Shown: positions 4,434 to 63,344 of the stretch, piece by piece | Numbering within the stretch: the stretch's first letter is position 1 | Layout: the number at the start of each line of letters is the position of its first letter | DNA from: Kiritimatiellia bacterium | Lineage (GTDB): Bacteria > Verrucomicrobiota > Kiritimatiellia > RFP12 > UBA1067 | Length of the DNA stretch: 64,000 bases | Reading direction: 5' to 3' | Assembly (NCBI GenBank): GCA_017542055.1 | Contig: JAFXXW010000010.1 | Location: forward strand, 11,438-75,437 | The notes under the pieces: generated by a model | Seen by the model: the letters and a program-made list of their open reading frames with translations, nothing else | Databases searched by the model: none | What the model was told of the DNA's origin: nothing | Made by a program: the position numbers and the translations under genes

Positions 4434-4462
4434 TTGCTTTTTCGCCAGATTTATGGTATTAT
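4434..4462 (+). promoter_or_regulatory. sigma70-type promoter cassette P1 (TTGCTT-17-TATTAT), ATG 9 nt after -10
   Basis: ttgctt tttcgccagatttatgg tattat, then atatagaca ATG(4472). Member of the 7-copy conserved cassette (see findings). Confidence 0.6.
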
Positions 4463-4471
4463 ATATAGACA

Positions 4472-5443
4472 ATGAGTGAAAAACGTGCATTGGTCGCGGG
4501 CGGAGCCGGTTTTTTGGGCAGTCATCTTTGCGAAAGATTGCTGGCGGACGGGTATTCGGTCGTGGCGTTGGACAATCTCCACACCGGGAGCGAAGACAAT
4601 CTGGTTTCGTTCCGGGATCGTCCCCGTTTCGAATTCCGGCGCCAGAACGTGATCGATCCGCTCGCAGGCGAGTTCGACGAAATCTATTCTTTGGCCTGTC
4701 CCGCTTCGCCGGTCCATTACCAGGCCGATCCTATCGCCACTTGGGAAACATCGGTGCTGGGAGTGCGCAATCTGCTCAAACTGTCGGAAAAATGCGGCGC
4801 CCGGCTGTTGCACGCCTCCACCAGCGAGATTTACGGCGACCCCTTGATGCATCCGCAGGAAGAGCATTATTGGGGCAATGTGAACACCATCGGCATCCGT
4901 TCCTGTTACGATGAAGGCAAGCGCGCCGCCGAAACCCTGATCGCCGATTATCGCCGGGTGAAAAACGTCGATGCGCGGATGGTGCGCATTTTCAACACCT
5001 ACGGTCCCCGGATGCATCCGCAGGACGGGAGGGTGGTGTCCAATTTCATCATGCAGGCGCTGCACGACCGGCCCATCACCATCTATGGCGACGGCACCCA
5101 GACGCGTTCGTTCCAGTACGTGGACGATCTTATCCGGGCGATGCGGCTTTTTATGGACAAGCCGCGCGACGAGGTGGATGGATTTTTCGCCCGGCATAAG
5201 CTGGGGACGCCGGTGCTCAACACCGGGAATCCCGGCGAATACACCATGAAGCAGCTGGCGGAGGAGGTGCTGCGCCTCATTCCCGACTCCCGATCGCAAA
5301 TCGTGTACGAACCTTTGCCGGCCGACGACCCCAAGAAACGCAAACCCGACATCACTTTGGCCAAGGAGCTGCTAGGCTGGGAGCCACAAGTGCCGCTGAG
5401 TGAAGGTCTCAAATCTACCATTGCCTACTTTGTCACGCGGTAA
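4472..5443 (+). CDS. UDP-glucuronate decarboxylase (UDP-xylose synthase-type SDR)
   Basis: [14 protein letters not shown] Rossmann motif, YDEGKR (YxxxK), and STSEIYGDP...HPQ.E.YWG typical of UXS/ArnA-C enzymes. Confidence 0.87.
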
Positions 5444-5486
5444 ATTCAAATATCCCAAGCTGGACTTTTTCGACCAAGAGTTCGGC

Positions 5487-7364
5487 ATGAAGGAAGCCTA
5501 CGGCAGGATTTGGCGGTACATCCGTCCCTACCGTTTCCGGCTGGTCGTGGGACTGGTGTGCGGATTTCTCACCGCCGGCACGCTGGTGCCGATGTTCCAG
5601 CTCATCCAACCCGCCACCAAGAGCATCGAACAGCGGATCGTGGAGGTGGAGGAGGAGCCGGCCGGCGAAGAGTCCAAGGTGGAACCGGCCGATTCCGGCA
5701 CTGCGGCGCAAATGCCCAAGTGGTACGGCAAGGCGCAGAAGTACGCCGCCAAACTCGGACTCGAGCTGGTGGACGAAAAGGGCGCCTTGACGGGCGGTCT
5801 CCTGGCGTTGGTGCTTACGGTAGTGCCTATCCTCGCCGGCTTGCGTTTGCTGCTCAAGTTCCTCAATCTCTACTTCCTGTCCTACGTGGGCAATTACGCG
5901 ATCGCGGATCTCGTGTGCGATCTTTTGCGCCACACCCAGCGCCAGTCGCTCCAGTTCTTCTCGCGGGTGGATATGGGCCGGCTCATGTCGCGCATCATGG
6001 GCGACTCCCAGCAGGTGATGACGGTAGTTAAGACGGTAATCGTCGATTTCGCCGAAGCGCCGTTCGAGATTCTCGTGTCCGGCGGCTACGTGGTGTATTT
6101 CGCCGTCAAGAACGACATGGTCCCCACGCTGATTTTGATTCTCATCGCTTTTCCGCTGTTCACCATCCCCATTTCCATGCTCGCCAAGAAGATCCGCGAA
6201 TATTCGCAGGAGACGATGGCGCGGGCTTCGGTGGTGTTTTCGCGCCTGCATGAAGTGGTGACGTGCATCGGGCTCGTGAAAAGCTTCAACACCGAACGCT
6301 TCGAATGGAACAACTATCGCGAGGCCAACACCCGCATGGTCAAGATCCAGCTGCGCAACGCGCGGATTGGCGGCATGGTGGGCCCGACGCTCGAAATCAC
6401 GGGCGTACTCATCATTTGCGGCTTCGTCTGCTGGTGTTTCGTCCAGCATATCACGCTCGACCAGGTGTTGCCCATGCTCGCGCCGCTCCTGGTGATGTAC
6501 AAACCGCTCAAGAAGGTCAGCAACATCCAGGTGGCGTTGGAGAATTCGATGGCGTCGTTGTGCCGTATTTTCTCGTTGCAGGACATGCACGACGAGTTGC
6601 CGGAAAAGGCCGACGCCGTCCGCAAGACCACGTTCGACCGCGACATCCGCTTCGAAAACGTCACGTTCCGTTACGCCACCGCCGATCGCGATGCCGTTTC
6701 GGGCGCCTCCTTCACCATCGAAAAAGGCAAGAAGGTGGCGGTAGTGGGCGGTACCGGCAGCGGCAAGTCCACCATGTCGTATCTGCTGGCGCGTTTCGCC
6801 GATCCTTCCTCCGGACGCATCACCATCGACGGCATCGACCTGCGCGACATCGCCATCGACGATCTTCGCCGGATGGTGGGCGTCATCACCCAGGAGCCGC
6901 TCCTCTTCAACGACACCATCGCCTACAATCTGCGTTACGGCACGCCGGACGCCGATGAAGAGTCGGTCCGCAAGGCCGCGCGCCTGGCCAACGCCGAAGA
7001 CTTCATCCTGTCCCAGCCCGAAGGCTACGGACGCGTGGTGGGCGAAAAGGGCATGGCGCTTTCCGGCGGCGAAAAGCAGCGCGTGTCCATTGCCGCAGCC
7101 ATCCTCAGGAATCCGCCCATTCTCATTCTGGACGAGGCCACGAGCGCCCTCGACAACGTGACCGAGGCGCAGGTGCAGGAAGCGTTGGAGAAGTTGATGG
7201 AAAACCGCACCACGTTCGTCATCGCCCACCGGCTTTCGACCGTGCAGAACGCCGATCTCATCCTGGTGATGGATTCCGGCCGCATCGTGGAGTCCGGCAC
7301 GCATGACGTACTCTACGCGAAAAACGGCTACTACCGCCACCTTTGCGACATACAGGAGCGCTGA
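5487..7364 (+). CDS. ABC transporter permease/ATP-binding half-transporter (MsbA/type-I exporter-like)
   Basis: Six-TM N-terminal half. Walker A GGTGSGKST, signature LSGGEKQR, Walker B ILILDEATSALD. Start taken at MKEAYGRIWRYIRPYRF (ATG 5487) rather than track start 5400, which overlaps the upstream gene. Confidence 0.9.
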   Translation: MKEAYGRIWRYIRPYRFRLVVGLVCGFLTAGTLVPMFQLIQPATKSIEQRIVEVEEEPAGEESKVEPADSGTAAQMPKWYGKAQKYAAKLGLELVDEKGALTGGLLALVLTVVPILAGLRLLLKFLNLYFLSYVGNYAIADLVCDLLRHTQRQSLQFFSRVDMGRLMSRIMGDSQQVMTVVKTVIVDFAEAPFEILVSGGYVVYFAVKNDMVPTLILILIAFPLFTIPISMLAKKIREYSQETMARASVVFSRLHEVVTCIGLVKSFNTERFEWNNYREANTRMVKIQLRNARIGGMVGPTLEITGVLIICGFVCWCFVQHITLDQVLPMLAPLLVMYKPLKKVSNIQVALENSMASLCRIFSLQDMHDELPEKADAVRKTTFDRDIRFENVTFRYATADRDAVSGASFTIEKGKKVAVVGGTGSGKSTMSYLLARFADPSSGRITIDGIDLRDIAIDDLRRMVGVITQEPLLFNDTIAYNLRYGTPDADEESVRKAARLANAEDFILSQPEGYGRVVGEKGMALSGGEKQRVSIAAAILRNPPILILDEATSALDNVTEAQVQEALEKLMENRTTFVIAHRLSTVQNADLILVMDSGRIVESGTHDVLYAKNGYYRHLCDIQER

Positions 7365-9313
7365 TGACCAACGAATACCGCAAAGAGTTTTTCGATCGCG
7401 ACTACACGGTGCGCGAGTCGGTCGGTCGCATCTGGCACTACATGTCCAAGTACAAGTTCCGGGTCATACTGGGGCTCTTTTTCGGCCTCGTCAACGCCGG
7501 CGTGCTGGTGCCGTTCTATCAACTGCTGCAGCCTACCGTAGCGCAGGCGGGCGGCGAGATAACCGCTTCGGCCAAGGTGGAGCAGCCCCGGGAAGAAGCG
7601 TCCCCTAAGCCGCAGGCGCACGGCAAACTGGACAAAGCCCTCGTCCGGGCGGCGGAACTGCCGGGATGGTATCGCGATCTGGAGCGTTTCGCCGGCAAGT
7701 TCGGCGTGCGTTTCACCGACGACGAAGGCAATATGCAGTCGGGCATGCTGTTTCTGGTGACTGCGGTCATTCCCGCCATTCTCGTGTTCCGGCTGCTGCT
7801 CACGTTCCTTTTCACCTATTGTCTCACCTGGGCGGCGAGCAAGGCGGTGGCCGATTTGCGCTGCGACATGCTCAAGCACGTGGAGGCGCAGTCGATGGAG
7901 TTCTTCGGCCGCGTGGACATGGGCCAGATCATCATGCGCGTCAACTCCGATCCCGGCTATCTCCAGATCGTGATGACTACCGTGCTGGTGCAGCTGGTGT
8001 TGGCGCCGTTCGAGATTCTGGTTTCGGCCGGGTTCATCGTGCATTTCGCCATCCAGAACCATCTGGTGCAGACGCTGCTCCTCCTGGGACTGGGCGCGCC
8101 GCTCTTTTTCGGTCCGTTGATTTTCATCGCCCGGCGCTTGCGCAAATATTCCAAGAAGATGCTGGAGCAGGGCTCGCTCATCGGCGCCAAACTGCATGAA
8201 ATCCTAACCTGCCAGAAGCGCGTCAAGGCCTACCACACCGAAGAATTCGAAAACGTCAATTTCCGGCTGGCCTACAATCTCCAGCTCAAGAACATCAAGA
8301 AGGCGTTGAAGCTCGGCATGATGACTTCGCCGGCGGTGGAGTCGATCGGCATCCTCATCATCGGCGTGTTCGTCATCTGGTGCTTCCTCTTTTCGGTGCC
8401 GCTTTCCGCCATTCTGCCGATGATCGCGCCCTTGCTCATCATCTACAAGCCCATCAAGGAAATCGGCAAGCTGCAGGTGCAGGTGCAGGAGACGATGGCC
8501 GGAATTTCTCGCGTGCTGTCGCTTTTGGACGTGCACATGGAACTGCCGCTGTCGGCCAATCCGGTCCGCAAGGATTCGTTCGATCGCGAAATCGTCTTCG
8601 ATCACGTGACCTTCAAGTACCAGACGCAGGACGATCCTGCCGTCAAGGATGCCAGCCTCACCATCAAGAAGGGCCAGTTCGTGGCGGTCGTGGGCGGCAC
8701 TGGTAGCGGCAAAACCACGCTCAGCAACTTGTTGGCGCGCTTTTACGATCCGATGTCGGGCAGCGTCAGCATCGATGGCGTGGACGTGCGCGATTTCGAG
8801 GTGGCCTCGCTCCGCAAACTCATCGGCGCCGTCTTGCAGGACACCTTCATTTTCAACGACACTATCGCCAACAATATCGCCTACGGCATCGAAAACGTCA
8901 GCATGGACGACATCGTGGCTGCCGCCAAACTGGCCAAGGCGCACGACTTCATCATGTCCCAGCCGGGCGGCTACGGACGCATGTGCGGCGAAAAGGGCAA
9001 TGCCATCTCCGGCGGCGAACGGCAACGTATCGCCATCGCCCTCGCCATCCTCAAGAATCCGCCCATCCTCATTCTGGACGAGGCGACCAGCGCCCTCGAC
9101 ACCGTTACCGAAGCGCTCGTGCAGGAGGCCATCAACAATCTCATGCAAAACCGCACCACGCTGGCCATCGCCCACCGGCTTTCCACCATCCGCAAGGCCG
9201 ACTGCATCCTGGTGATGCATCAGGGCCGGATAGTGGAGCGCGGCACCCACGACGAACTTTACGCCATGGGCGGCAGATACACCGCACTTTGCAACAGGAG
9301 TACCGAGCAATGA
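7364..9313 (+). CDS. ABC transporter permease/ATP-binding half-transporter (MsbA-like), paralogue of the upstream gene
   Basis: Walker A GGTGSGKTT, signature ISGGERQR, Walker B ILILDEATSALD. ATG 7364 overlaps the upstream TGA (TGATG). Confidence 0.9.
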   Translation: MTNEYRKEFFDRDYTVRESVGRIWHYMSKYKFRVILGLFFGLVNAGVLVPFYQLLQPTVAQAGGEITASAKVEQPREEASPKPQAHGKLDKALVRAAELPGWYRDLERFAGKFGVRFTDDEGNMQSGMLFLVTAVIPAILVFRLLLTFLFTYCLTWAASKAVADLRCDMLKHVEAQSMEFFGRVDMGQIIMRVNSDPGYLQIVMTTVLVQLVLAPFEILVSAGFIVHFAIQNHLVQTLLLLGLGAPLFFGPLIFIARRLRKYSKKMLEQGSLIGAKLHEILTCQKRVKAYHTEEFENVNFRLAYNLQLKNIKKALKLGMMTSPAVESIGILIIGVFVIWCFLFSVPLSAILPMIAPLLIIYKPIKEIGKLQVQVQETMAGISRVLSLLDVHMELPLSANPVRKDSFDREIVFDHVTFKYQTQDDPAVKDASLTIKKGQFVAVVGGTGSGKTTLSNLLARFYDPMSGSVSIDGVDVRDFEVASLRKLIGAVLQDTFIFNDTIANNIAYGIENVSMDDIVAAAKLAKAHDFIMSQPGGYGRMCGEKGNAISGGERQRIAIALAILKNPPILILDEATSALDTVTEALVQEAINNLMQNRTTLAIAHRLSTIRKADCILVMHQGRIVERGTHDELYAMGGRYTALCNRSTEQ

Positions 9314-9777
9314 CGTTAGACTACAATATCGGACATGCTTTCATGCATCCTTGGTTCTGGTCGTCCTTTTTGAGCTGGATTCTGGCCCAGACCATCAAAA
9401 TGACCACCAACGCCTTCAAAACCCACACCTTCGATTTCGAATATCTGGTGTCCACCGGCGGAATGCCCAGCGCCCACTCGGCCATGGCCTCGGGGATGGC
9501 GTTTTCCATTGGCTTCACGGAGGGCTTCGGCACTCCGGTCGCCATGCTCGGGATCGGTTGGGCGGCAGTGACCATTTTCGATGCCGCCACCGTCCGCAAG
9601 GCCGCCGGCGACCAGGCCAAAGTGCTCAACCAGATCGTCAAGGAATTCAAGGAGAACCTCAAGTTCAATTCTGGCCATTTGAAAGAACTGCTCGGACACA
9701 CCCAGAAGGAGGTTTGGGCCGGAATGCTGACCGGCATCCTGGTGGCGTTGGCGGTGTGCAGTCTCTGGAGATATTGA
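9310..9777 (+). CDS. divergent PAP2 / DUF212 (acid phosphatase-vanadium haloperoxidase-related) membrane protein
   Basis: STGGMPSAHSAMASGMAF...IFDAATVRKAAGDQAKVLNQIV matches the DUF212 signature (GGMPSSHSA...YDA.GVR...G.QA..LN). ATGA overlap with the ABC gene. Confidence 0.78.
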   Translation: MTLDYNIGHAFMHPWFWSSFLSWILAQTIKMTTNAFKTHTFDFEYLVSTGGMPSAHSAMASGMAFSIGFTEGFGTPVAMLGIGWAAVTIFDAATVRKAAGDQAKVLNQIVKEFKENLKFNSGHLKELLGHTQKEVWAGMLTGILVALAVCSLWRY

Positions 9778-10745
9778 TGCTGGGTGCGCTGCTAGGACTG
9801 TTCGCGATCGTGGTGTGGGGGGTGACCGTAGTCAACACCCGCGCCTTGCTCGCCGACTTTTCCGCGCTGGAGATAATGGTCATCCGCTTCTTGCTGGCGT
9901 GGTTCGTTTTGTGGGTGATGAGTCCGCGCGAATTCAAGTTCGTCACGCTCTTCGGGGGGCGTCGCACCGTGCTCACCTATCGCATCTACGCCTGGATGGG
10001 TCTTTGCGGCGTGGCGTTGTACCAGTTCACCGAAAACTGCGCCATCCATTTCACCAACGCCAGCAACGTGGCCATTTTGATGTCTTTGAGCCCCATCGTG
10101 ACAGCGGTCATGGCCAAAGTCTTCCTCAAAGACCGCAACCTCGGCGTTTGGATGTGGGTGGGCTCGGCTATGGCGATTGCCGGAGGCGTCCTGGTGGGCG
10201 CCGACAACGTCCGCGATCTCCATCTCGACCCCCTTGGCGACTTCATGGTGCTGGTGACCATCGTCTGCTGGGGCGTGTATTCGCTATTGATGGACCGCAC
10301 CAACCACGTCCGGGTGAGCCCCCTCGTAGTGGTGCGCAAGGCGTTTTTCTGGTCGCTCGTGGCCATTTTGCCGGTTGCCGTCTGGGGTACCACCTCGTCC
10401 GGCCAAACGGCGCTTGACGGATCTTTCGCCATCAATCTCGATCCTGCCGTCAATCTGGCGCGGTTCGGCAAATTCTGGAATCTGTTCAATCTCGTCTTTC
10501 TCGGCGTATTCGCCTCGGCGCTCGCGTTTTCGGCGTGGAATCTGGCCAGCAAGCGGTTGGGGATGGTCAAGGCCAATATCGGGCTTTATCTGATGCCGGT
10601 GATGGGGGTGGTGGCGGCTGCGCTGTTCCTGGGCGAACGCATCACTTGGCCGGTAATACTGGGCGGCCTCCTCATTCTCGCGGGAGTGGCGGTGGCCAGC
10701 GTCAACCCTATGCGCAAAGTGGGATTTCAAGGAGCAAAGGAATAA
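9777..10745 (+). CDS. EamA/DMT-family transporter
   Basis: About 10 predicted TM helices in two EamA-like halves (MLGALLGLFAIVVWGVTVVNTR...). TGATG overlap upstream. Confidence 0.83.
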   Translation: MLGALLGLFAIVVWGVTVVNTRALLADFSALEIMVIRFLLAWFVLWVMSPREFKFVTLFGGRRTVLTYRIYAWMGLCGVALYQFTENCAIHFTNASNVAILMSLSPIVTAVMAKVFLKDRNLGVWMWVGSAMAIAGGVLVGADNVRDLHLDPLGDFMVLVTIVCWGVYSLLMDRTNHVRVSPLVVVRKAFFWSLVAILPVAVWGTTSSGQTALDGSFAINLDPAVNLARFGKFWNLFNLVFLGVFASALAFSAWNLASKRLGMVKANIGLYLMPVMGVVAAALFLGERITWPVILGGLLILAGVAVASVNPMRKVGFQGAKE

Positions 10746-10746
10746 T

Positions 10747-12048
10747 ATGACACAATTGCAAGCCGCACGTCAGGGAATCGTCACCGAAGCCATGAAAATC
10801 GTGGCGGAAGACGAGGGGCTCACCCCTGAAGCCGTGCGCGATGCCGTAGCCTCGGGCGAAGCGGTCATTCCGCTCAACATCCATCATGTCAATTGCCGTC
10901 CCGTCGGGGTGGGGCGCATGTTCACCACCAAGATCAACGCCAATCTGGGACGCAGCGTGACCCATTCCGGCAAGGGCGACGAGCTGGAAAAGCTGGCCAT
11001 CGCGCTTAAGGCCGGAGCCGACTTCGTGATGGACCTTTCGGTGGGCCAGGACATCCCCGCCATCCGTCAGGGCATGCTGGACGCCTCCAACCGACCCCTG
11101 GGCACGGTGCCGGTGTACGAAACCATTTCCCGGCTCGAGGGCGACATTCCGCAGATGGACCCCGCGTTTCTCGTTTCCGTCATCAAGGCGCAGGCCGAGC
11201 AGGGCGTGGACTTCATGACGCTGCATGCCGGACTTATGCTGGAGGACATCCCCAAGGCCATGAAGCGGCGCATGGGCATCGTGTCGCGCGGAGGCTCGAT
11301 CATGGCGGAGTGGATGATGGCCAACCACGCCCAAAATCCCCTGTGGGAGCGTTGGGACGAGATCATGGACATCCTCGCCGAGCATGACGTCACCGTGTCG
11401 TTGGGCGACGGGCTCCGGTCCGGCTGCCTGATGGACGGCTCGGACGAAGCGCAGTTTGCGGAACTGGCCAAGTTGGGCGAACTCGTCGAGCGGTGCCGGG
11501 CTCGCGGCGTGCAGGTGATGGTGGAAGGGCCCGGCCATATCGCGTTCGACCAGATCAAGATGAATATGGAGCGCGAACAGGAACTCTGCCACAAGGCGCC
11601 GTTCTATGTTTTGGGCCCCGTAGTGACCGACATCGCCCCCGGCTACGACCACATCGTTACCGCCATCGGCGCCACTGCCGCAGCCACTTACGGCGCGAGT
11701 CTCCTTTGCTACGTCACTCCGGCCGAACATCTGGGTCTGCCCGACGGCGACGAGGTGCATCAGGGGTGCATCGCCTACAAGATCGCCGCGCATGCCGGAG
11801 ACATCGCCCGCCACCATCCCCATGCACGCGATCGCGACGACCAGATGGCGCAGGCGCGGCACGATTTCTGCTGGGACGAACAGTTCGCCCTGGCGCTCGA
11901 TCCCGAACATGCCCGCAACCGTTGGCTCAAAACCCGCGCCAACGCCGACGTGGATCACGGCGACGACCATTGCTCGATGTGCGGCAAGCAGTTCTGCGCC
12001 GTGCGCACCTCAAAGCGCATCGAAAAACTCGCCGCCAACCAATCGTAA
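10747..12048 (+). CDS. thiC: phosphomethylpyrimidine synthase
   Basis: MTQLQAARQGIVTEAMK..., FTTKINANLG, VMVEGPGH, and the C-terminal Fe-S motif CSMCGKQFCAVR. Short (433 aa) ThiC form. Confidence 0.95.
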   Translation: MTQLQAARQGIVTEAMKIVAEDEGLTPEAVRDAVASGEAVIPLNIHHVNCRPVGVGRMFTTKINANLGRSVTHSGKGDELEKLAIALKAGADFVMDLSVGQDIPAIRQGMLDASNRPLGTVPVYETISRLEGDIPQMDPAFLVSVIKAQAEQGVDFMTLHAGLMLEDIPKAMKRRMGIVSRGGSIMAEWMMANHAQNPLWERWDEIMDILAEHDVTVSLGDGLRSGCLMDGSDEAQFAELAKLGELVERCRARGVQVMVEGPGHIAFDQIKMNMEREQELCHKAPFYVLGPVVTDIAPGYDHIVTAIGATAAATYGASLLCYVTPAEHLGLPDGDEVHQGCIAYKIAAHAGDIARHHPHARDRDDQMAQARHDFCWDEQFALALDPEHARNRWLKTRANADVDHGDDHCSMCGKQFCAVRTSKRIEKLAANQS

Positions 12049-12063
12049 ACGGAGGATAAAGAC

Positions 12064-12366
12064 ATGATCAAGAACATCGCTACCGAAGCCGAATTCGACG
12101 CCGCCACTTCGTCGGGCGTGCAATTGGTGGATTTTTGGGCCGTCTGGTGCGGTCCCTGCAAGATGATGGGCGCCGTCATCGACGCCAAAATCGTTCCCGT
12201 CCGTCCGGACCTGGACGTAATCAAGGTGGATGTGGACTCGTGTCCGCAATTGGCGGCGCGTTTTGGCGTGCAGTCCATCCCCACGCTCCTCGTCATGCAG
12301 GATGGCGCGGTCAAGGAAAAATTCATCGGCGTCACCCCGCCGGAAACCATTCTCGCCGCGCTCTAA
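12064..12366 (+). CDS. trxA: thioredoxin
   Basis: WAVWCGPCKMM active site; 100 aa. Confidence 0.93.
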   Translation: MIKNIATEAEFDAATSSGVQLVDFWAVWCGPCKMMGAVIDAKIVPVRPDLDVIKVDVDSCPQLAARFGVQSIPTLLVMQDGAVKEKFIGVTPPETILAAL

Positions 12367-12367
12367 G

Positions 12368-13234
12368 GTGGAACTCGACTTCCCCGAATACGCCTGTCCC
12401 TACGCCGCTCGTCTGGCGGAAAAATCTCGTCGTTTCCGGCTTCAGGTCAAGGCGGACAAGCGCGAACTGAAGGGCGGGGACGGCTTTTCGGCCGATCCTT
12501 TCGGGGAACTGTCCCGGGCCGGCAAACTCCCGGGACTCAAACAGCGCTTTCCGGATCGCGTGCTGGTGATGACGACGGACCGTTGTTTCATGACGTGCCG
12601 CCATTGCACCCGGAGGGGACTGTTCGGCCGGACGGCCATCGTGGACACCCCGGAAAAGCTCGCGGCCTGCGTCGAGTACGTCAAAGCCCATCCCAAAGTG
12701 CGCGACGTGCTCCTGTCTGGCGGGGACGTCCTTACCTTGCCCGATCGCCAGGTGATGGAATTCGTGAACGCGTTCGCCGCGCTGCCCCAGGTGGAAGTGG
12801 TGCGCGTGTGTTCGCGGGCCTTGAGCGCCAATCCGGGACGCATCACCGCACGCCTGGCCAAGCTCCTCGGACAAAGCGGCAAGGTGTGGTTCAACACCCA
12901 GTTCAACTGCGCCGACGAAGTCACCCCCGAAGCCGTCCATGCCGCCAAACTGCTGGTGGAGCGCGGCATCCCGGTGAGCTGCCAGACCGTGCTTTTGAAA
13001 GGCGTCAACGATTCCGGCCCAGAAATGCTCCGATTGCTCCGGAAGCTCTCGGTTGCGCGCATCCGTCCCTATTACGTCTTTTTGTGCGACCCCGTCTCCG
13101 GCATCGACCATTTCCGGGTGGATGCCGACCAAGCCCGCCAGATCGAAAACTATTGCGCCGAACGCATCGGGGGATTGGCGCTTCCTCGTTTCGTCCGGGA
13201 CGTGCCCGGCGCCAAAAGGAAACTCCCCGTATGA
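12368..13234 (+). CDS. KamA-family radical SAM protein (lysine 2,3-aminomutase-like)
   Basis: RFPDRVLVMTTDRCFMTCRHCTRR (CxxxCxxC) and LSGGDVLTL. GTG 12368 chosen as the first start after the trxA stop, in frame with track ORF 12230..13234. Confidence 0.83.
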   Translation: MELDFPEYACPYAARLAEKSRRFRLQVKADKRELKGGDGFSADPFGELSRAGKLPGLKQRFPDRVLVMTTDRCFMTCRHCTRRGLFGRTAIVDTPEKLAACVEYVKAHPKVRDVLLSGGDVLTLPDRQVMEFVNAFAALPQVEVVRVCSRALSANPGRITARLAKLLGQSGKVWFNTQFNCADEVTPEAVHAAKLLVERGIPVSCQTVLLKGVNDSGPEMLRLLRKLSVARIRPYYVFLCDPVSGIDHFRVDADQARQIENYCAERIGGLALPRFVRDVPGAKRKLPV

Positions 13235-13971
13235 ATACGCTCATCACCGGTGCTTCTTCCGGAATCGGCCAGGCGCTCGCGTTCGCTTGCGCCAAGCGCG
13301 GCGACCGGCTGTTCCTGTGCGGACGCGACCGGGCCCGACTGGACGAGGTGGCCGCCCGGTGCCGCGAACTGGGCGCCAAGGAAGTGGCCGCCGAAACGGT
13401 TGACGTCACCCAGCCGGCCACCACGCGCGACTTTATCGAACGCGCCGACGAATTGGCCGCGCTCGACTTGGTGTTCGCCAATGCCGGAGTTTCCACCGGA
13501 GCCGAAACCGAACGCAATGTCCGCAATACTTTTTCGGTCAACGTGATGGGCGTGGTCAACACCGTCTTGCCCGCCATCGACCTCATGACGGAGCGCGGAA
13601 GGGGACAAATCGCCATCACCGCTTCCATTGCGGGGTACGGTCCCCTGTTCGCCTGCCCCAGCTACAGCGCCACCAAAGCTTGCGTCAAGACGTGGGGCCT
13701 GGCGTTGCGCGGCTATTTGAAGCCCAAGGGCGTGGGCGTATCGGTGATTTGTCCCGGCTTCGTCCGCTCGCGCATCACGGACCGGAACACCTGTCCCATG
13801 CCGTTTTTCATGGAGGCCGACAAAGCCGCCCAGATCATTCTTAAAGGCGTATCCGCCAATCGGGCGCTTGTCGCCTTTCCTTGGATCATGCGGTTCGGCG
13901 CGTGGTTCATGGGCGCGGTTCCGTATGTTTTGAGCGAATTCGTCAACCGCTTCCTGCCCAAAAAGAACTGA
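13231..13971 (+). CDS. short-chain dehydrogenase/reductase
   Basis: TGASSGIGQALA (TGxxxGxG), NAGV, YSATKACV (YxxxK). ATGA overlap upstream. Confidence 0.87.
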   Translation: MNTLITGASSGIGQALAFACAKRGDRLFLCGRDRARLDEVAARCRELGAKEVAAETVDVTQPATTRDFIERADELAALDLVFANAGVSTGAETERNVRNTFSVNVMGVVNTVLPAIDLMTERGRGQIAITASIAGYGPLFACPSYSATKACVKTWGLALRGYLKPKGVGVSVICPGFVRSRITDRNTCPMPFFMEADKAAQIILKGVSANRALVAFPWIMRFGAWFMGAVPYVLSEFVNRFLPKKN

Positions 13972-13973
13972 CC

Positions 13974-15161
13974 ATGCTGCTGTTGTCGATTTTGCTGGCC
14001 GTTGTCGATTTGGCGGAAGTGTTCGAACACGATTCCGCCTGGGACCGTCCGCCTTCCGCCTACACCAAGCTTTCGCACCGTCATGACCTGGAGTGGAAGG
14101 GCGCCAAGATCGTCGATTGGCGGCTCGTGCCGGAAGGGAGCGGCGTAGGGCGGGTGGAGCTCAATCTCTACAATCGCGGCGACGACAAGACGGGGGCGGG
14201 CATGTCCGAAGCGGAACTCAAGGACCTGCTGGAGCGGAGCATTCCCGGTATCGATCTGTCCAAGGCCGTGCGGCGCAAAATCAAGGCCGGCTCCTTCCAG
14301 TACGAATGTTCGAGCGACAAGTCCAAGCCCGCCATCGAAGCCGGCTGGGGCGTTTCCGACGGCAAGGTGGACTATTTGCGGGTGTCGCTGATGAAGTCGG
14401 CCAAGAAAAAGTCGGCCGTCCAAAAATCCGTTTCCGGCAAGGCGTCCAAGGCCAAAATCGCCGCCAATGTCCGCAAGGAATCGAACGGCGACGTGTGGAT
14501 AAACAACATCCCGATGGTGGATCAGGGCGACAAAGGCTACTGCGCGGTTGCCACTTGCGAACGCGTCTTGCGCTATTACGGCGAGACGGTAGACGAGCAT
14601 CAGCTGGCCCAGATGGCGGGCACTACCGCCAAAGACGGCACTTCCTCGTCGGCGATGAAGGAAACGGTCAAGACCATCGGCAGCAAGTTCCGGCTGGGCT
14701 ACAACGATATTTTCTCCGCCATCGCCTCCCGCAAGGACATCCTCAAGGACCTGGAGCTCTACAACAAGTCCGCCAAGGCGCTCAAGCGTCCGGAACTGGA
14801 CGAGCGCGACTTTTATGTCGGCAACACGTTCATGGTGCCGATGATGCGCGAGGCGATGGAGCCGGAGGTGCTCTTGCGGATGCGCGCCAAAGACCCCCGC
14901 TTCAAGAAGTTTGTCGCTTCCGTCAAGTCCCGCATCGACGAGGGCATCCCGGTCTTTTGGGGCGTCACCTTGGGGATTTTCCCCGAGCCCGACATCCCCC
15001 AGGCCAATGGCGGCCACATGCGGCTCATCATCGGCTACAACGTCAAGACGGAAGAATTCATCTTTTCCGACAGTTGGGGCGATCGCCACGCCTTCAAGCG
15101 CATGCGCGCCGACCAGGCCTTCGCCATCACCAACAACGCCTACACGCTCCGCCCCCTTTGA
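13974..15161 (+). CDS. secreted/anchored papain-fold cysteine peptidase, C39-like
   Basis: N-terminal hydrophobic MLLLSILLAVV. Candidate Cys/His/Asp triad in C39-like contexts: QGDKGYCAVATCERVLRYYG, GGHMRLIIGYN, FSDSWG. The N-terminal ~190 aa are unassigned. Confidence 0.7.
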   Translation: MLLLSILLAVVDLAEVFEHDSAWDRPPSAYTKLSHRHDLEWKGAKIVDWRLVPEGSGVGRVELNLYNRGDDKTGAGMSEAELKDLLERSIPGIDLSKAVRRKIKAGSFQYECSSDKSKPAIEAGWGVSDGKVDYLRVSLMKSAKKKSAVQKSVSGKASKAKIAANVRKESNGDVWINNIPMVDQGDKGYCAVATCERVLRYYGETVDEHQLAQMAGTTAKDGTSSSAMKETVKTIGSKFRLGYNDIFSAIASRKDILKDLELYNKSAKALKRPELDERDFYVGNTFMVPMMREAMEPEVLLRMRAKDPRFKKFVASVKSRIDEGIPVFWGVTLGIFPEPDIPQANGGHMRLIIGYNVKTEEFIFSDSWGDRHAFKRMRADQAFAITNNAYTLRPL

Positions 15162-25502: not shown

Positions 25503-25518
25503 TCGAACGGGAAACGAT

Positions 25519-30232: not shown

Positions 30233-30233
30233 A

Positions 30234-42708: not shown

Positions 42709-42709
42709 C

Positions 42710-46611: not shown

Positions 46612-47941
46612 ACGTGGCCTTCGCCTCCAACACTTCCGGTTCCGCCACTTTGGCGGCTGCCGGCACACCCAGATCCTTGAGGTCGCCCAACTTCTTCATG
46701 ATGTTGCCCGGACCCGCGCACAGCTGACGCACCGACGTATTGTACTGCTCGTTGACTTTGGCGATCTGCTTGCCCAATTCCTGGAATCCGTTCACGAACG
46801 TGTTGAACTTGTCCACCAGACTCTCCGCCGCCTCTTTGATCCGGACCGCCTTCTTGTCCATGTTGTAGTTGATCCACATTTCCTCGATGAGCTTCACGAG
46901 CGGCACCACCGACGATCCGTTGACGATCGCGATGCCGTGTTCGCGCGCATATTCCCGGAGCAGCACCTGATCGTCCTGACCGTTCGCCCGCACCTTGATC
47001 CGCGCCTTCATGGCCACTAGGTAGACTTCGTCGAAAGGAATGTACATGAGCATGGTGGGCAGTAGCTTGTGCCCCGTCGCGATATTGAGGCTCTTCACGT
47101 AGTCGGCCCGGATCATCTCGTCCACATGCGCCTTCACGCTCTCCACGATCCGCGCTTTCGCGCTTTCCTTGACCGCTCCGTCCTCCGCGCTGTGATACTC
47201 CGCATAGGCCTCGACCGTCGCCTTCGAATCGATGATCAGCCAACGGTCCTCCGGCAGCTTGACGAGAAAGTCCAACCGCTTGTCCTTCCGCTGCGACCCC
47301 TCCGACGCGAAAGTTTCCTGGTAGACGTAATCCGACTCTTCCTTCAGCCCCGCCAGTTCCAGCACGCGCTTGAGCTGCAGTTCAGACCACTCGCCCGTCA
47401 CTACCGCCTCGCCCCGAATGGCGCTCGCCAGTTCGTTGGCCTTGGCCGAAACCTGGTTGGTGTCCGCCACCAGCCGTTTGATGCGCTCGTCCAGCTGACC
47501 GGCCCGGTGCGCGTCCTCCGAATTCACCTCGTCAATGCGCCGACGGAACTTGCCGATCTCGTCCTGCAACGGTTTCAACAGCCGCTCGATGTTTTCGGTG
47601 CCCTCTTCCTTGAGCTTGCGCGCATTCTCGCCCAGAATCCGCTCCGACAGCTCCTTGATGCGGGCATAGTTGATTTCCTGCTCGTGCTTGTACCGGAGCT
47701 CCCGTTCGCGATTGGACGCCTCGATGGCCTTCACTTCCGCTTCGGCCGTGATTTTGGCCTCTTCCAGACCCCGCACCCACTCGCGTTCGGTCTCGGCCGC
47801 CACCAATGCGTCGTTCAACCTTTCGTTGAGATTGGACACTTGCGATTCGTAAGCCTTGCGCGTGGCCGATAGCATCATAAACGCCATTATAGCCACCAAC
47901 GCGATAATGGCCACTCCCACCAGAATTGCCGTAATTGTCAT
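46598..47941 (-). CDS. rmuC: DNA recombination protein RmuC
   Basis: N-terminal TM, long coiled coil, RmuC nuclease-like core RLDFLVKLPEDRWLIIDSKATVEAY. Confidence 0.88.
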   Translation of the reverse strand: MTITAILVGVAIIALVAIMAFMMLSATRKAYESQVSNLNERLNDALVAAETEREWVRGLEEAKITAEAEVKAIEASNRERELRYKHEQEINYARIKELSERILGENARKLKEEGTENIERLLKPLQDEIGKFRRRIDEVNSEDAHRAGQLDERIKRLVADTNQVSAKANELASAIRGEAVVTGEWSELQLKRVLELAGLKEESDYVYQETFASEGSQRKDKRLDFLVKLPEDRWLIIDSKATVEAYAEYHSAEDGAVKESAKARIVESVKAHVDEMIRADYVKSLNIATGHKLLPTMLMYIPFDEVYLVAMKARIKVRANGQDDQVLLREYAREHGIAIVNGSSVVPLVKLIEEMWINYNMDKKAVRIKEAAESLVDKFNTFVNGFQELGKQIAKVNEQYNTSVRQLCAGPGNIMKKLGDLKDLGVPAAAKVAEPEVLEAKATYGNA

Positions 47942-61263: not shown

Positions 61264-61270
61264 GCAGAAT

Positions 61271-61417
61271 CTTGGATTTTCGATTTATGATTTTCGATTT
61301 GCGATTGTCCAATCGACATCTTGGATTTTCGATTTATGATTTTCGATTTGCGATTGCCCAATCGACATCTTGGATTTTCGATTTATGATTTTCGATTTGC
61401 GATTGCCCAATCGACAA
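61271..61417. repeat. 3 x 49-bp tandem repeat, each unit carrying palindrome CGATTG-NN-CAATCG
   Basis: Units at 61271-61319, 61320-61368 and 61369-61417 (cttggattttcgatttatgattttcgatttgcgattgYccaatcgaca). Palindromes at 61302-61315, 61351-61364 and 61400-61413. Confidence 0.92.
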
Positions 61418-61440
61418 TCCCTCAATACAATCCTAAATCC

Positions 61441-61477
61441 AATCGGTAAATCGATAAATCGGTAAATCGGTAAATCC
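61441..61477. repeat. 8-bp microsatellite (AATCGGTA)n
   Basis: aatcggta aatcgata aatcggta aatcggta aatcc; two further units at 61524-61542. Confidence 0.85.
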
Positions 61478-61667
61478 TACCCAAATGCAATCTTAAATCG
61501 TAAATCTAAAATCCAAAATCCCCAATCGGTAAATCGGTAAATGCCGGGGGGTGCCCACCCCCCTCGCCCATACCCCCCTTGAGCTTTTGGCAATTGGCAT
61601 ATTTGCGCTTATTATATAAGCGCTTGCAAATCTGCAAACAAAATCGCAACAATTGATAATGTATAAA

Positions 61668-62456
61668 TCATATGCGGCTTATGACTCGATTAAAAACGTC
61701 GCACCAGGCCGACTTGACGTCGAACTCGATATTGTCGCGCAATATTGGCATGGTATCAAGTTGGTAATCGCTCATCGCGAGTTTTAGCTCCATATTGGCA
61801 ACAAACTCTTTCTGGCTGGGCACGCTTCCGCACGAAGCAAGCATGAATCGTCGCCAACACTGCAACAGCCGGTCGACATCAACCTTGCCGCTATTGAGTG
61901 CGAGATGCATATCGTACAAATCCCGCCCCTTCCTGCGCTGATACATCGCCCGCAGTTTCGATCCTATAAGTTCATCCAGCCAATAGGTGTTTATGCCGCA
62001 TCCTCCCGAAAACCAACTGTTCTGAACCGAAAACGGAACTTCCACATATCCAAGTTCCGCAAAATGCTCGCTGGTGTTGACCTCTAGTTTTATGCGCATG
62101 GACTCCACCGGCATTATTTCGCTCTCGTAACGGAATTTCATCCGAAAGCCAAACCGGCGCTGCTCGAAAGTCTTGCCCGGCAACCACGACAACACTTCAT
62201 CCAATCGTTCCACTATCGGCTTTATCGCTCCCGCCTTGACCTGCACGAGATCAATATCTTCCGAATAGCGAGACTGCGGGCTCAAGTACAATTTATGTAG
62301 CGCCGTTCCGCCCCTGAACGCAAGATTCTCCCGCAGAAAATCGTCGGAAAAGATGGCCACGAGCGCCCGGCAGATAACCAGATCCTGCTCCACGAAACTC
62401 TTGCGCGACCAAGGATGCCCGGCGCTCCACTCGTTTATGCTATTGGCGCTGATCAT
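61668..62456 (-). CDS. abiEii: AbiEii/AbiGii-family nucleotidyltransferase toxin (type IV TA)
   Basis: LAFRGGTALHKLYL...RYSEDIDL, the DUF1814 nucleotidyltransferase signature. ATGA overlap with the upstream antitoxin gene. Confidence 0.88.
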   Translation of the reverse strand: MISANSINEWSAGHPWSRKSFVEQDLVICRALVAIFSDDFLRENLAFRGGTALHKLYLSPQSRYSEDIDLVQVKAGAIKPIVERLDEVLSWLPGKTFEQRRFGFRMKFRYESEIMPVESMRIKLEVNTSEHFAELGYVEVPFSVQNSWFSGGCGINTYWLDELIGSKLRAMYQRRKGRDLYDMHLALNSGKVDVDRLLQCWRRFMLASCGSVPSQKEFVANMELKLAMSDYQLDTMPILRDNIEFDVKSAWCDVFNRVISRI

Positions 62457-63286
62457 ACGTCCTCCACCTCTACTTCCACATTCGGCATTATCTTCCAGCG
62501 GTTGCTGCCGGAATCAAGCGTGTTCGCCGGGGAATGCTGATCAAGCAAGCGAACCGTCATTCGTCGACCGCACCCCTTCAACCCTTCGTACAACATATCG
62601 GCAAGCCGCTTGTCCTCCAGCGGATACTCCAACAAATATCCCAGCCGCTGCGCATCGACGATGCCGATCTTGCGCAACAATTCCGGACTCTGATTGAAAT
62701 CCAATTGCTCCTTCAATTCCGCAATCACCGTGGCAACATTCGAGAGCCCCCCGCAAATCGAATGGAAGCGCACCAGATCGAATGCGGTCAGCGCGGCATT
62801 CGAGAACCTGATCGTGCCGCCCTCGCCATTGCGCACAAATGTGGCGCTGTCGATAATTTCGCTTCGATACGCAAACTCCAAGGCGGCCTTCTTCAGTCTC
62901 GGCAAATGCAGTCTGGCGCCCGATGCCACCACATAGTCGCGCATCGCTCGCTGATGTCCCGCGCCCAAAACCGAGGCGGCGCTCAATAGTCCCACATAAT
63001 AAGGTCGCTTCAAATACTTCATCAGCTCGTCAATATAGAAAAATGGCGGAACCTTGCCATGCAACTTGTACGCCACCGGAATCTTCACGTAAAAACCGTT
63101 GCAGGGCGAAAAAACCTCCCCAGCCAACACCAAGCGCTTGATAGCAGTGGCTATATGTCCATTCTTGGCATCTGGAAATGCCTGCTTCAACTCAATGAGT
63201 GTGGTCATCGACCGACCCTTGAGTTCTTGATCGATAATATAATCTGCTACTGTCATTGCATTTCTGTTGTCATTAATGGTCGCCAC
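62453..63286 (-). CDS. abiEi: AbiEi-family antitoxin / transcriptional regulator (type IV TA)
   Basis: N-terminal wHTH-like region and the conserved RPYYVGLLSAASVLGAGHQ block typical of AbiEi. GTG start at 63286; alternative ATG at 63256. Confidence 0.84.
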   Translation of the reverse strand: MATINDNRNAMTVADYIIDQELKGRSMTTLIELKQAFPDAKNGHIATAIKRLVLAGEVFSPCNGFYVKIPVAYKLHGKVPPFFYIDELMKYLKRPYYVGLLSAASVLGAGHQRAMRDYVVASGARLHLPRLKKAALEFAYRSEIIDSATFVRNGEGGTIRFSNAALTAFDLVRFHSICGGLSNVATVIAELKEQLDFNQSPELLRKIGIVDAQRLGYLLEYPLEDKRLADMLYEGLKGCGRRMTVRLLDQHSPANTLDSGSNRWKIMPNVEVEVEDV

Positions 63287-63314
63287 CTGTCCATTTCTGA
63301 TTAGGTTTGTGCAT

Positions 63315-63344
63315 ATTATATCATATTCCAGCCCGAAAAGTCAA
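63315..63344 (-). promoter_or_regulatory. promoter cassette P7 (TTGACT-18-TATAAT) for abiEi-abiEii
   Basis: The minus strand reads ttgact tttcgggctggaatatga tataat. Confidence 0.62.

Follow-up and report, generated by a model that had tools for sequence, protein, structure and literature searches.

On sequence comparison, we lean towards reading the conserved cassettes of this DNA as ordinary sigma-70-type promoters with a two-layered spacer, in which the 3′ half belongs to a lineage-wide extended -10 element and the 5′ half marks a propagated family of promoter modules. We suggest the following scheme. Each long operon would begin with a primary-sigma promoter, from which transcription would start ~7–9 nt past TATAAT, often at the start codon. 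Positions -21 to -13 (A/T-rich, TG at -15/-14, A) and TATAAT-AT would presumably be touched by sigma regions 2.4/3.0 and nearby polymerase surfaces, by analogy with the established behaviour of extended -10 promoters. Three features would define the family: a T-run and the GC box CGGGCGG, both within -29 to -20, and an element of 12 nt upstream of the -35 hexamer. It may have spread to many unrelated operon heads in the genus, with whole modules being copied or replaced during operon reshuffling, after which near-identity would be maintained because the promoter would be both strong and compact. The copies could have arisen by segmental duplication, by recombination where operons adjoin or by transport on inserted DNA, all of which would fit.

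Cassettes at the operon heads of the window

The analysed stretch of DNA (the window) is 64 kb long and comes from an uncultured gut member of the Kiritimatiellae (Verrucomicrobiota) with a 60% GC genome. According to the gene map, coding sequence makes up 95.9% of the window and intergenic sequence 4.1%. Seven transcription units are present, and a cassette faces the first gene of each (7/7), intergenic and co-oriented with the downstream operon in every case; the chance of such placement is ~0.041^7, roughly 2e-10. The first-pass annotation had listed seven intergenic sites pointing at the adjacent gene, and all of them were recovered as quoted, with their coordinates and strands. Each operon-start gap longer than 50 nt contains one cassette. 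Elsewhere, gaps longer than 40 nt are found only at 5443–5487 and 41205–41251, between co-directional genes, and no site above the 8-bit reporting cut-off was present in them.

P1 (4425–4468, + strand) is a degenerate copy, gcagattttcc TTGCTT tttcgccagatttatgg TATTAT at (40.8 bits), which takes up 44 nt of the 57-nt gap separating the dCMP deaminase stop codon (4414) from the epimerase ATG (4472). It heads a 10-gene operon (4472–15161), and as the ATG lies 9 nt past the -10 hexamer, the leader would be very short. P2 (15199–15242, +) has the class form gcagatttctc TTGCTT ttcgggcggaaatatga TATAAT at (56.0 bits) and heads the operon 15273–30158, which runs from the gene of a 3409-aa CotH/LTD protein through a DUF1570 gene; AAGGAG precedes the ATG in its leader. 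P3 (31026–31069, +; class, caagattttgc TTGATT tttcgggcggaatatga TATAAT at; 56.5 bits) heads the operon 31110–40318, from an HMGL-like gene through uvrB, and a mini-ORF of 10 codons (31076–31108, MDNCVCCTKG) begins 12 nt past its -10 hexamer.

The remaining four copies are on the minus strand. P4 (47978–48023; class, gcactttccgc TTGATT ttccggcggaaatatga TATAAT at; 57.4 bits) lies in the 87 nt that separate pflA from rmuC and heads the operon 47941–40315, while the degenerate P5 (51028–51073; gattttacccc TTGACT tttggcccacgatatga TATACT at; 37.7 bits) heads pflB-pflA (51000–48029). P6 (61229–61274; class, caagattctgc TTGATT tttgggcgggaatatga TATAAT at; 55.2 bits) heads a 13-gene operon (61223–51072), thiD through glycosyltransferases; the thiD ATG lies 11 nt past its -10 hexamer, so the mRNA would be near-leaderless. 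P7 (63309–63356; class with an 18-nt spacer, gcaagaaaacgc TTGACT tttcgggctggaatatga TATAAT at; 58.8 bits) precedes the low-GC AbiEi/AbiEii pair (63286–61668; region of ~50% GC), which it drives as the first-pass annotation had proposed.

The -35 hexamer fits TTG(A/C)(C/T/A)T and the -10 hexamer TAT(A/T)(A/C)T at 7/7 sites. The spacer is 17 nt long in six sites and 18 nt in P7, and ATGA or ATGG abuts the -10 hexamer everywhere (7/7), which places TG at -15/-14. The earlier assignment to sigma-70-type promoters agrees with these elements, all of which (-35, 17–18 nt spacing, TG, -10) are present in all seven copies. Conservation exceeds the 29 nt originally quoted and spans ~45 nt: it starts ~12 nt upstream of -35 and ends 2 nt past -10 (TATAAT-AT). 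The element upstream of -35 occurs in three flavours, GCAGATTTYNC, GCACTTTCCGC and GCAAGAAAACGC.

A search with the 29-mer consensus at up to 3 mismatches found P2, P3, P4, P6 and P7, with 0 matches expected from 100 dinucleotide shuffles; P1 and P5, the degenerate copies, fall outside this set. Both strands were also scanned with a weight matrix of two blocks, for which promoters from a different genome, the MAG CAMZDY01, were the only training set (small samples: 8 promoters in the window species and ~25 in this one MAG, whose loci had been fetched through the motif itself). P1–P7 were the seven best matches in the window (37.7–58.8 bits); the next-best match reached 20.8 bits and the maximum in 5 shuffles was 9.9. 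A generic sigma-70 scan was not discriminating and gave as many sites in the window as in shuffles; it recovers P3–P7, flagging TG at each, and misses P1 and P2 only because TTGCTT scores 3/6. The simple matrix marks all operon starts in 64 kb without any false match and offers a workable promoter model for this uncultured lineage of the gut; our literature search found no promoter description for Kiritimatiellae. The information in the cassette is ~57 bits, against ~14 bits needed for 7–8 sites in 128 kb, and such an excess over the site-specifying need is typical of sequences related by descent.

The genes downstream of the cassettes are unrelated, both in the window (epimerase, CotH giant, HMGL, RmuC, PFL, ThiD, AbiE) and in other genomes (SMC, Fmt, ArgG, ArgB, carbamoyltransferase, L13, Sel1, XRE regulator). 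As far as sequence and placement tell, every transcription unit in the window has the cassette as its promoter, so it does not mark a special set of seven and no regulon is implied. It is highly improbable that the cassette is an operator whose pseudo-palindrome, TTTCCG-N-CGGAAA, would bind a global repressor or activator co-regulating the operons. P4 does contain a perfect 6+1+6 dyad (TTTCCG G CGGAAA) and P2 a 5/6 dyad by eye. However, the dyad is lost in P3, P6, P7 and most CAMZDY01 copies, and it follows trivially from the T-run/S-run/A-run composition; the downstream genes (housekeeping, surface, defence) are also functionally incoherent, and the cassette stands on every window operon. A palindromic operator or transcription-factor regulon was rejected because the dyad, perfect only in P4, is not conserved across copies. 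As for a structured RNA, the conserved block sits upstream of the inferred start site, an Rfam scan of the window gave nothing at the gathering threshold and a tRNA scan of it found none.

Two layers of the spacer

The 3′ half of the spacer (-21 to -13, aAATATGA), plus TATAAT-AT, is found in essentially every promoter of the genus and its relatives. Because of this conservation across the clade, we assign it to a lineage-wide element of the extended -10 or '-16 region' type, and only the 5′ half and the upstream element would then be anomalous. Extended -10 (TGnTATAAT) promoters of sigma-70/sigma-A, including the Gram-positive '-16 region' (TRTG), are a known class. The cassettes resemble them in TTGNNN, 17–18 nt spacing, TG at -15/-14, TATAAT and A/T-rich bases ahead of TG, and this likeness accounts for the conserved 3′ spacer half, which is general in the clade. 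In contrast to extended -10 promoters, the block is longer (-21 to -13 plus 'AT' after -10) and near-invariant in a 60% GC genome.

In 15 CAMZDY01 promoters that had played no part in retrieving the loci, ~10 bits fall in the 3′ 9 nt of the spacer and ~1.2 bits in the 5′ 8 nt (TTTCGGGC), and the 5′ half reaches 7.2 bits in the window promoters (n = 8). The first-pass view that a conserved spacer is not expected therefore stands for the 5′ half (1.2 vs 7.2 bits) and fails for the 3′ 9 nt, which are conserved in unselected promoters as well. Both the sister species (RmuC 71–72% aa identity) and distant ones (40–48%) keep the (t)atTGn-TATAAT end, and their 5′ spacers are free. It should be noted that the metagenome search with the RmuC alignment returned distant relatives only (40–48% identity; two at 27–29%), which are informative for the lineage-wide -10 and not for orthologous cassettes. 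Among the three options offered at first, a factor contacting the spacer, a sigma with spacer readout or dispersal of a mobile promoter module, we favour dispersal as the source of the 5′ half and attribute the 3′ half to ordinary polymerase/sigma contact; no transposon-like features were found.

The 5′ spacers are either near TTTCGGGCGG or unrelated to it. The subclass with the TTTCGGGCGG half and the 12-nt upstream element makes up 5–7 of the 8 promoters here. Strict class matches number 5 in the 64-kb window and, from a scan of reference genomes other than that of the window species, 12 in CAMZDY01, 1 in the MAG RGIG6712 and 1 in each of two further Kiritimatiellae MAGs; in the sister loci, none of the 8 unselected promoters is a strict match. 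A subfamily mark also extends across species, as TTGACT goes with the 18-nt spacer in 4/4 strict copies from two species and with two upstream flavours. P7 and the smc promoter of CAMZDY01 (L026) differ by 1 mismatch in 45 nt, P2 and cassette L019 of RGIG6712 are identical over 31/31 nt, and a longer upstream similarity (GGAGTTGGGGAGTTTTTGCACTTTCCGC) is common to non-orthologous loci of two species. Between the window genome and RGIG6712, rmuC is only 56% identical at third codon positions. Identity over 31–45 nt at near-saturated synonymous distance is not passive inheritance, and it points to continuing spread or to purifying selection on each spacer base. Contigs of the same species are 99.6–100% identical (most ≥99.97%) and give no information on constraint. 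Single matches in Clostridia genomes were considered as a sign of a cross-phylum spacer rule and rejected; other promoters there have unrelated spacers, so we take these matches for isolated ones out of a very large search space.

Purifying selection on each base of the spacer would be the prediction if the whole spacer were read. According to this alternative, which we regard as possible without expecting it, the holoenzyme (sigma, or the beta′ zipper near -21) or an accessory protein recognises the T-run, GC box and A-run at -29 to -18, base-specifically or via DNA shape, and promoters converge on one ~45-bp optimum with no need of copying. The cross-species identity of P2 with L019 and of P7 with L026 (44/45), at non-orthologous genes and despite saturated synonymous sites, is consistent with it. 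Furthermore, the spacer is less variable than -35 positions 4–6, and variation in the GC box consists mostly of G-to-C exchange plus compensating changes in T-run and A-run length, which keeps the T-run/S-run/A-run composition and the 17–18 nt spacing and so looks like selection on the spacer and not like drift. The GC-to-A junction at -21 to -18 also lies near published contact positions, namely the beta′ zipper Z-element at -22 to -18 (PMC3173786) and position -18, contacted by sigma-70 R451 (PMC3130263). In both of these documented cases the sequence or shape of the spacer around -22 to -18 affects promoter use, and the GC-box/A-run junction of the cassette falls in that interval. The Z-element, however, is a loosely defined AACCT-like motif whose effects do not exceed two-fold (PMC3173786), unlike the 10 near-identical nt of the cassette. 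If the polymerase reads the GC box, it would be an unusually strong spacer element.

Nevertheless, promoters with unrelated 5′ spacers are evidently used in the same genomes (XseB, other leaderless genes), non-class promoters stand ahead of tRNAs in sister species, and the 5′ half holds ~1 bit in unselected promoters. Cassette abundance is very different among related genomes, and the TTGACT/18-nt linkage and the three upstream flavours resemble copy lineages more than one optimum. A third base-specific core element in the genus, namely a GC box (-26 to -20) flanked by the T-run and the A-run and read by sigma, the beta′ zipper or an accessory protein, seems rather doubtful to us. If it were real, the housekeeping promoter would be one signal of ~45 bp and >50 bits, nearer in information to a phage-polymerase promoter than to a classical sigma-70 promoter. 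The cassettes provide a natural case for weighing copying against selection at near-identical promoters, as each of the two has its own physically distinct half of the spacer, 5′ or 3′.

Turnover, upstream modules and mobility

Cassettes change at orthologous genes. In relatives at 66–72% (L061–L066), rmuC has no promoter and is operon-internal behind a 3–19 nt gap; in the 80% relative (L067) a cassette of a different upstream flavour precedes it and the ATG is leaderless, and in the window it follows P4, with another upstream flavour and a 42-nt leader. The HMGL gene has a cassette and an unalignable 5′UTR in a relative with 89% nt coding identity, and a non-class promoter in a 77% relative. 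A relic of a promoter region lies at 30171–30232 (+), with two copies of cactttccgS-TTGACG-gggagg and no -10, the second of which stops ~8 nt into the spacer, where the orphan sequence 30233–30842 begins. It aligns to the 5′ part of an intact CAMZDY01 promoter (L020 -3653) and also to L016 +1471, so the truncated 5′ halves noted there in the first-pass annotation are real.

P3 is directly preceded by an upstream module (30834–31025, +) in which GC-rich hairpins and GATTTNN repeats of 7 nt accompany a single 49-nt unit; the palindrome CGATTGGACAATCG lies inside this unit. A copy of the module stands before P6 (61275–61587, -), where the 49-nt unit occurs three times. The two upstream regions have >200 nt in common in pieces (63 nt at 89%, 56 nt at 96%), and the remaining cassette pairs show 31–49 nt of similarity.

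These features bear on the idea that the cassette is the outward-facing end of a MITE- or IS-like element, or of an integrating island, landing at operon heads and giving the genes behind it a promoter, which we consider quite unlikely. P3 marks the right boundary of ~800 nt of orphan DNA with lower GC, which interrupts an older promoter mid-spacer, and P6 ends the AbiE insertion with a >200-nt terminal module common to P3. Downstream of the AbiE module, another assembly shows a different junction, and contigs break at the cassettes: L042, L038 and L039 end within the repeat of the P6 module, and the independent assemblies L067 and L069 break inside cassettes. On the other hand, transposase and integrase domains were absent from the gene products on either side of the cassettes and from the rest of the window. 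A repeat search of the window revealed no inverted arms bounding the cassettes, and neither it nor flank inspection gave terminal inverted repeats or target duplications around P1, P2, P4 and P5 (57–111 nt gaps); no 'empty site' was found for the cassettes either. Viral contigs scanned with a 23-mer gave no match. The orphan ORF 30234–30842, considered as a mobility gene, was rejected since it has no Pfam or PHROG family and no homologue besides itself. Moreover, the similarity is bounded by TATAAT-AT and ~-47, limits that coincide exactly with those of the functional promoter. A transposon as the copying route is not demonstrated by these data. The AbiE contigs in other assemblies are 2–5 kb long only. 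Being identical repeats of at least 31 nt, cassettes cause the assemblies of these genomes to fragment at operon boundaries.

The propagated-family reading of the 5′ half recalls the putative mobile promoters of Nijveen, Matus-Garcia and van Passel, surveyed with a limit of 50 nt at 80% identity (PMC3575422). As in that survey, highly similar promoters stand before unrelated genes of one genome and are common to related taxa. Only P3/P6 lie above the limit (≥80% over ≥50 nt, non-paralogous genes); the other pairs are shorter, and most copies, at 31–47 nt, fall below it; in addition, the cassette family supplies most operon promoters of the sampled region and not a few pairs. Correia elements, ERIC and REPIN, as far as the account of them in the same survey goes (PMC3575422), are promoter-carrying dispersed repeats with terminal inverted repeats, hairpins and defined ends. 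Like them, the cassettes are dispersed intergenic repeats predicted to give neighbouring genes promoter activity; compared with that account, the cassette is without terminal inverted repeats, hairpins and defined ends and coincides with the promoter itself.

Start positions and predicted leaderless mRNAs

With start sites placed from gene starts only, the best reading is that many cassettes drive leaderless mRNAs. Promoters of such mRNAs have been described in Deinococcus (PMC4007540) and mycobacteria (PMC4633059), and ~10% of start sites are leaderless in the verrucomicrobium Akkermansia (PMC4782308). The likeness lies in a -10 hexamer at a fixed short distance from the start codon and the lack of a Shine-Dalgarno sequence, as at ~40% of the CAMZDY01 promoters, thiD and the epimerase gene; unlike the promoters cited, the cassette combines this with a complete -35, an upstream element and the extended form of the -10. 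The predicted widespread leaderless translation would aid gene-start and operon annotation of these MAGs. In CAMZDY01, a long ORF begins 7–11 nt past TATAAT at 10 of 25 such promoters. Three of these ORF starts are supported by Pfam matches from profile position 1: SMC_N (protein residues 2–136 on profile 1–135), Formyl_trans_N (residues 1–178 on profile 1–177) and PglD_N (residues 3–87 on profile 1–78).

Promoter cassettes and transcription units

The seven promoter cassettes described in the first-pass annotation were all present in the window, with the sequences, positions and strands reported there. P2, P3, P4, P6 and P7 were recovered by the 29-mer consensus with up to 3 mismatches (0 expected from 100 dinucleotide-preserving shuffles), and P1 and P5 are degenerate versions. 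The conserved block exceeds the quoted 29 nt: it also takes in a stretch of about 12 nt before the -35, which comes in three flavours (GCAGATTTYNC, GCACTTTCCGC and GCAAGAAAACGC), and 'AT' after the -10. As an independent test, both strands of the window were scanned with a two-block weight matrix trained only on the promoters of another genome. The top seven matches were exactly P7, P4, P3, P2 and P6 (55–59 bits), P1 (40.8) and P5 (37.7), against 20.8 for the eighth-ranked match and a peak of 9.9 over five shuffles.

The window has a GC content of about 60%, and tRNA and Rfam family scans of it returned none. Its encoded proteins recur on gut-metagenome contigs with 99.6–100% nucleotide identity, and the named homologues of RmuC and the HMGL-like protein belong to Kiritimatiellae MAGs. 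Gene calls transferred from the contigs and verified by translation gave a coding share of 95.9% and seven transcription units. On the plus strand, P1 (4425–4468) precedes 4472–15161 (epimerase, ABC transporters, ThiC and, last, a C39 peptidase gene), P2 (15199–15242) precedes 15273–30158 (a 3409-aa CotH/LTD protein, fumarase, LigA and, last, a DUF1570 gene), and P3 (31026–31069) precedes 31110–40318 (from the HMGL-like gene to UvrB). On the minus strand, P4 (47978–48023) heads 47941–40315 (RmuC and downstream genes), P5 (51028–51073) heads 51000–48029 (PFL and activase), P6 (61229–61274) heads 61223–51072 (13 genes, including ThiD and FabH and ending with glycosyltransferases), and P7 (63309–63356) heads 63286–61668, the AbiEi/AbiEii pair that had been assigned to a cassette.

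The proposed intergenic location and orientation toward the adjacent gene were borne out: each copy lies at an operon head and none in coding sequence, while only 4.1% of the window is intergenic; the chance of all seven matches falling within this fraction is about 2e-10. Each operon-head gap longer than 50 nt carries one cassette directed toward the operon. Since every transcription unit in the window has the cassette as its promoter, the cassette defines no special regulon. The same species has an eighth promoter shortly beyond the window (L002:952), which reads TTGACA tgacgcgcaaaatatag TATAAT at and has a 5' spacer unlike that of the cassette.

The architecture corresponds to sigma-70-type promoters that have an extended -10 and, upstream, an A/T element, and the features of this class that can be read from sequence are present. 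In CAMZDY01, a related MAG, a long ORF starts 7–11 nt past TATAAT in 10 of the 25 promoters of cassette type, and three such starts coincide with position 1 of a Pfam profile: SMC_N (MYLKQLEIVGFKSF...), Formyl_trans_N (Fmt, MRIVFMG...) and PglD_N. In a sister species, an 81-aa protein from an independent gene call starts 6 nt past the -10. The start codon in the window lies 11 nt past the -10 for thiD and 9 nt for the epimerase gene; the remaining five promoters have leaders of 28–46 nt, with AAGGAG in that of P2. Start codons located where the sigma-70 holoenzyme initiates would imply leaderless mRNAs and, by extension, real initiation at this position. In Akkermansia, another verrucomicrobium, leaderless transcripts make up about 10% of start sites (PMC4782308). 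Judged by sequence, the cassette is real and is predicted to be the standard promoter of the organism. A literature search for promoters of Kiritimatiellae found no paper describing them, and the cassette should be useful mainly as an annotation tool for the lineage.

Two layers of the spacer

Promoters were gathered on the basis of -35 TTG and -10 TATAAT alone, with the spacer unconstrained, and those used to fetch loci were set apart from the rest. In 15 unselected CAMZDY01 promoters, the 3' 9 nt of the spacer (-21 to -13, consensus aAAATATGA) carries about 10 bits, the 'AT' past the -10 about 3 bits, and the 5' 8 nt about 1.2 bits. Sister species (RmuC 71–72% aa; loci L061–L064) have the same pattern (e.g. 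TTGCAT aattccggaatttatga TATAAT ac and TTGACA tgcacgcggcaaatatga TATAAT ac), and tttTGn-TATAAT is retained in more distant Kiritimatiellae (RmuC 40–48%). Conservation in unselected, sister and distant promoters indicates that the 3' half is most probably a lineage-wide extended -10. It belongs to the known TGn or '-16 region' promoters, but is unusually long and strict.

The 5' half, a T-run and GC box (-29 to -20), reaches 7.2 bits in the window (n=8, complete enumeration). Genus-wide, 5' spacers fall into two groups, one similar to TTTCGGGCGG and the other unrelated (ggagaaac, aaccatag, agcggatt, aatccgcc and others), and this separation points to a discrete class rather than a general polymerase rule. 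The conserved spacer had been called unexpected; this no longer applies to the 3' half, given the known extended -10 class, and stands for the 5' half. The cassette is a natural case in which copying could be told apart from constraint inside one promoter.

An exact scan with TTYSGGSNGRAATATGATATAAT over 185,579 species genomes yielded 32 loci in total, with 12 in CAMZDY01 ('uncultured Verrucomicrobia bacterium'), one in each of three Kiritimatiellae MAGs, and about 16 single ones in Clostridia. The species of the window is absent from this collection, as none of its five exact matches came back. The Clostridia matches are promoters; since other promoters in the same loci have unrelated spacers, these matches were regarded as the tail to be expected of so large a search space. 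One gut 'bacterium' genome without classification, the sole one outside Kiritimatiellae with more than one strict match, has GGGGG TTGATT TTTGGGCTGAAATATGA TATAAT twice in tandem, the copies being 120 nt apart (L035, 1403–1545). A scan of viral contigs gave 0 matches.

Origin of the 5' half

Among the options first put forward for the spacer (a contacting factor, a sigma with spacer readout, or dispersal of a promoter module), the evidence favours dispersal for the 5' half, and its class would represent a propagated promoter family. Strict copies number 5 in the 64-kb window, 12 in the whole CAMZDY01 MAG, 1 in the related MAG RGIG6712, and 0 among eight unselected promoters of sister loci; the genes downstream of the cassettes are unrelated to one another. 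The same promoter is not retained at orthologous genes. In 66–72% relatives, rmuC lies 3–19 nt behind the preceding gene without a promoter; in an 80% relative it has a cassette of the GCAAGAAAACGC flavour with the ATG 8 nt past the -10, and in the window one of the GCACTTTCCGC flavour with a 42-nt leader. For the HMGL gene, a relative with 89% coding nucleotide identity has the cassette and an unalignable 5'UTR, similarity returning 3 nt before the ATG, and a 77% relative has the non-class promoter TTGACA aatgtagggtgaatatga TATAAT.

TTGACT goes with an 18-nt spacer (one extra GC-box base) in 4/4 strict copies (P7, L022, L023 and L026), which come from two species and carry two upstream flavours; this linkage speaks for descent with some recombination rather than for a single optimum. 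P3 and P6 have more than 200 nt of common upstream sequence, composed of GC hairpins, 7-nt repeats and a 49-nt unit with the palindrome CGATTGGACAATCG, and in two species the GCACTTTCCGC flavour has another 20–30 conserved nt (GGAGTTGGGGAGTTTTT) at loci that are not orthologous. The truncated copies annotated at 30171–30232 (plus strand) were confirmed as a relic in which the 5' part of the promoter region survives, while about 800 nt of orphan sequence, with P3 at its end, takes the place of the 3' half. Assembly breaks fall inside cassettes (L067, L069), as expected where repeats are exact and reach the length of the assembly k-mer. The information in the cassette amounts to about 57 bits, whereas about 14 would suffice to specify 7–8 sites in 128 kb; an excess of this kind occurs where sequences share descent or have more than one reader.

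The proposed spread of one promoter allele to many unrelated genes corresponds to the 'putative mobile promoters' (PMC3575422). Only P3 and P6 reach the length used in that survey, and its cases are isolated pairs, whereas here the family supplies most operon heads. It is improbable that the cassette is itself a transposon-like element: no transposase, terminal repeats or target duplications were found, and the edges of similarity are those of a functional promoter. A shared operator is unlikely, with a perfect dyad in P4 only and unrelated target genes.

A polymerase or factor reading the whole spacer is kept as a serious rival, although a doubtful one, on account of cross-species identity, GC-box variation and the position of a sequence junction. 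P2 matches the RGIG6712 cassette upstream of a carbamoyltransferase gene at 31/31 nt, with rmuC third codon positions 56% identical between these genomes, and P7 differs from the CAMZDY01 smc promoter at 1 of 45 nt. Passive inheritance cannot give such near-identity between species with near-saturated synonymous sites; continuing spread from conserved sources or purifying selection at each spacer position is needed. The GC-box variants (CGGGCGG, CCGGCGG, GGGCGGG, CGGCCGG, CGGGCYGG) are mostly G-to-C exchanges and come with compensating T-run/A-run lengths, the spacing staying at 17–18 nt, an indication that properties of the spacer are under selection. The transition from GC to A falls at -21 to -18, where the beta' zipper/Z-element (PMC3173786) and sigma-70 R451 (PMC3130263) act in model organisms. 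The discrete nature of the class and the TTGACT/18-nt linkage speak against such readout and for the propagated family.

Repeats, the AbiE module and operon structure

The orphan sequence between the relic and the upstream module of P3 (30233–30842, about 600 nt) has lower GC and three 21-nt direct repeats (AGAGGAAAAAAGTTCCGCCCA, 30290–30352). Its ORF belongs to no Pfam or PHROG family, and homologues were found only within the species. The sequence may be what is left of an integrated replicon, the repeats being iteron-like. Between P3 and the HMGL-like gene lies a leaderless mini-ORF of 10 codons (31076–31108), which is Cys-rich (MDNCVCCTKG). Many homologues of the HMGL-like gene elsewhere encode about 400 aa with an N-terminal HTH_17 domain, which the window version does not have.

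The regions upstream of promoters at 61264–61587 and 30834–31025 consist of short tandem repeats: a 49-nt unit in three copies with the palindrome CGATTGGACAATCG, arrays of 7-nt GATTTTC and 8-nt AATCGGTA, and GC-rich hairpins (GGGGGGTGCGTACCCCCC). Like arrays (GATTTACC and GGGGAGTT) precede promoters in CAMZDY01 (L016). Candidate roles are as curved DNA, factor-binding arrays or insulators. Immediately upstream of P7 (63367–63523) lie 22-nt tandem repeats, comprising 3.5 copies of CTCCGCGGTGAGGGACTTTGGT and a related array of 2.4 copies. In the AT-rich stretch 63560–63830, GATAGCACA / TGTGCTATC occurs six or more times, in both orientations, around a further promoter-like site, TTGAAA-18-TATAAT (63710–63681, minus strand); this stretch looks like a putative operator-rich control region of a foreign element adjoining the AbiE pair. 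The AbiEi/AbiEii module (61569–63826, about 50% GC) is identical on its upstream side in another assembly (L068), where the downstream junction diverges directly after AAGGGGGGTATG. This difference suggests that the module sits in more than one context or strain variant. All contigs bearing it are only 2–5 kb.

The 3409-aa secreted protein (15273–25502) has reprolysin-like metallopeptidase, CHB_HEX_C, CotH kinase and lamin-tail domains, and its gene opens an operon in which genes for fumarase and DNA ligase follow. Among related Kiritimatiellae, operons have been extensively rearranged (L061–L066 compared with window 40315–47941), with a conserved block of rmuC, GFO, an AMP-binding gene, a small ORF and HlyIII. 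In relatives this block is fused behind murligase, folE and an MS-channel gene, and in the window it lies behind pflA with its own promoter.
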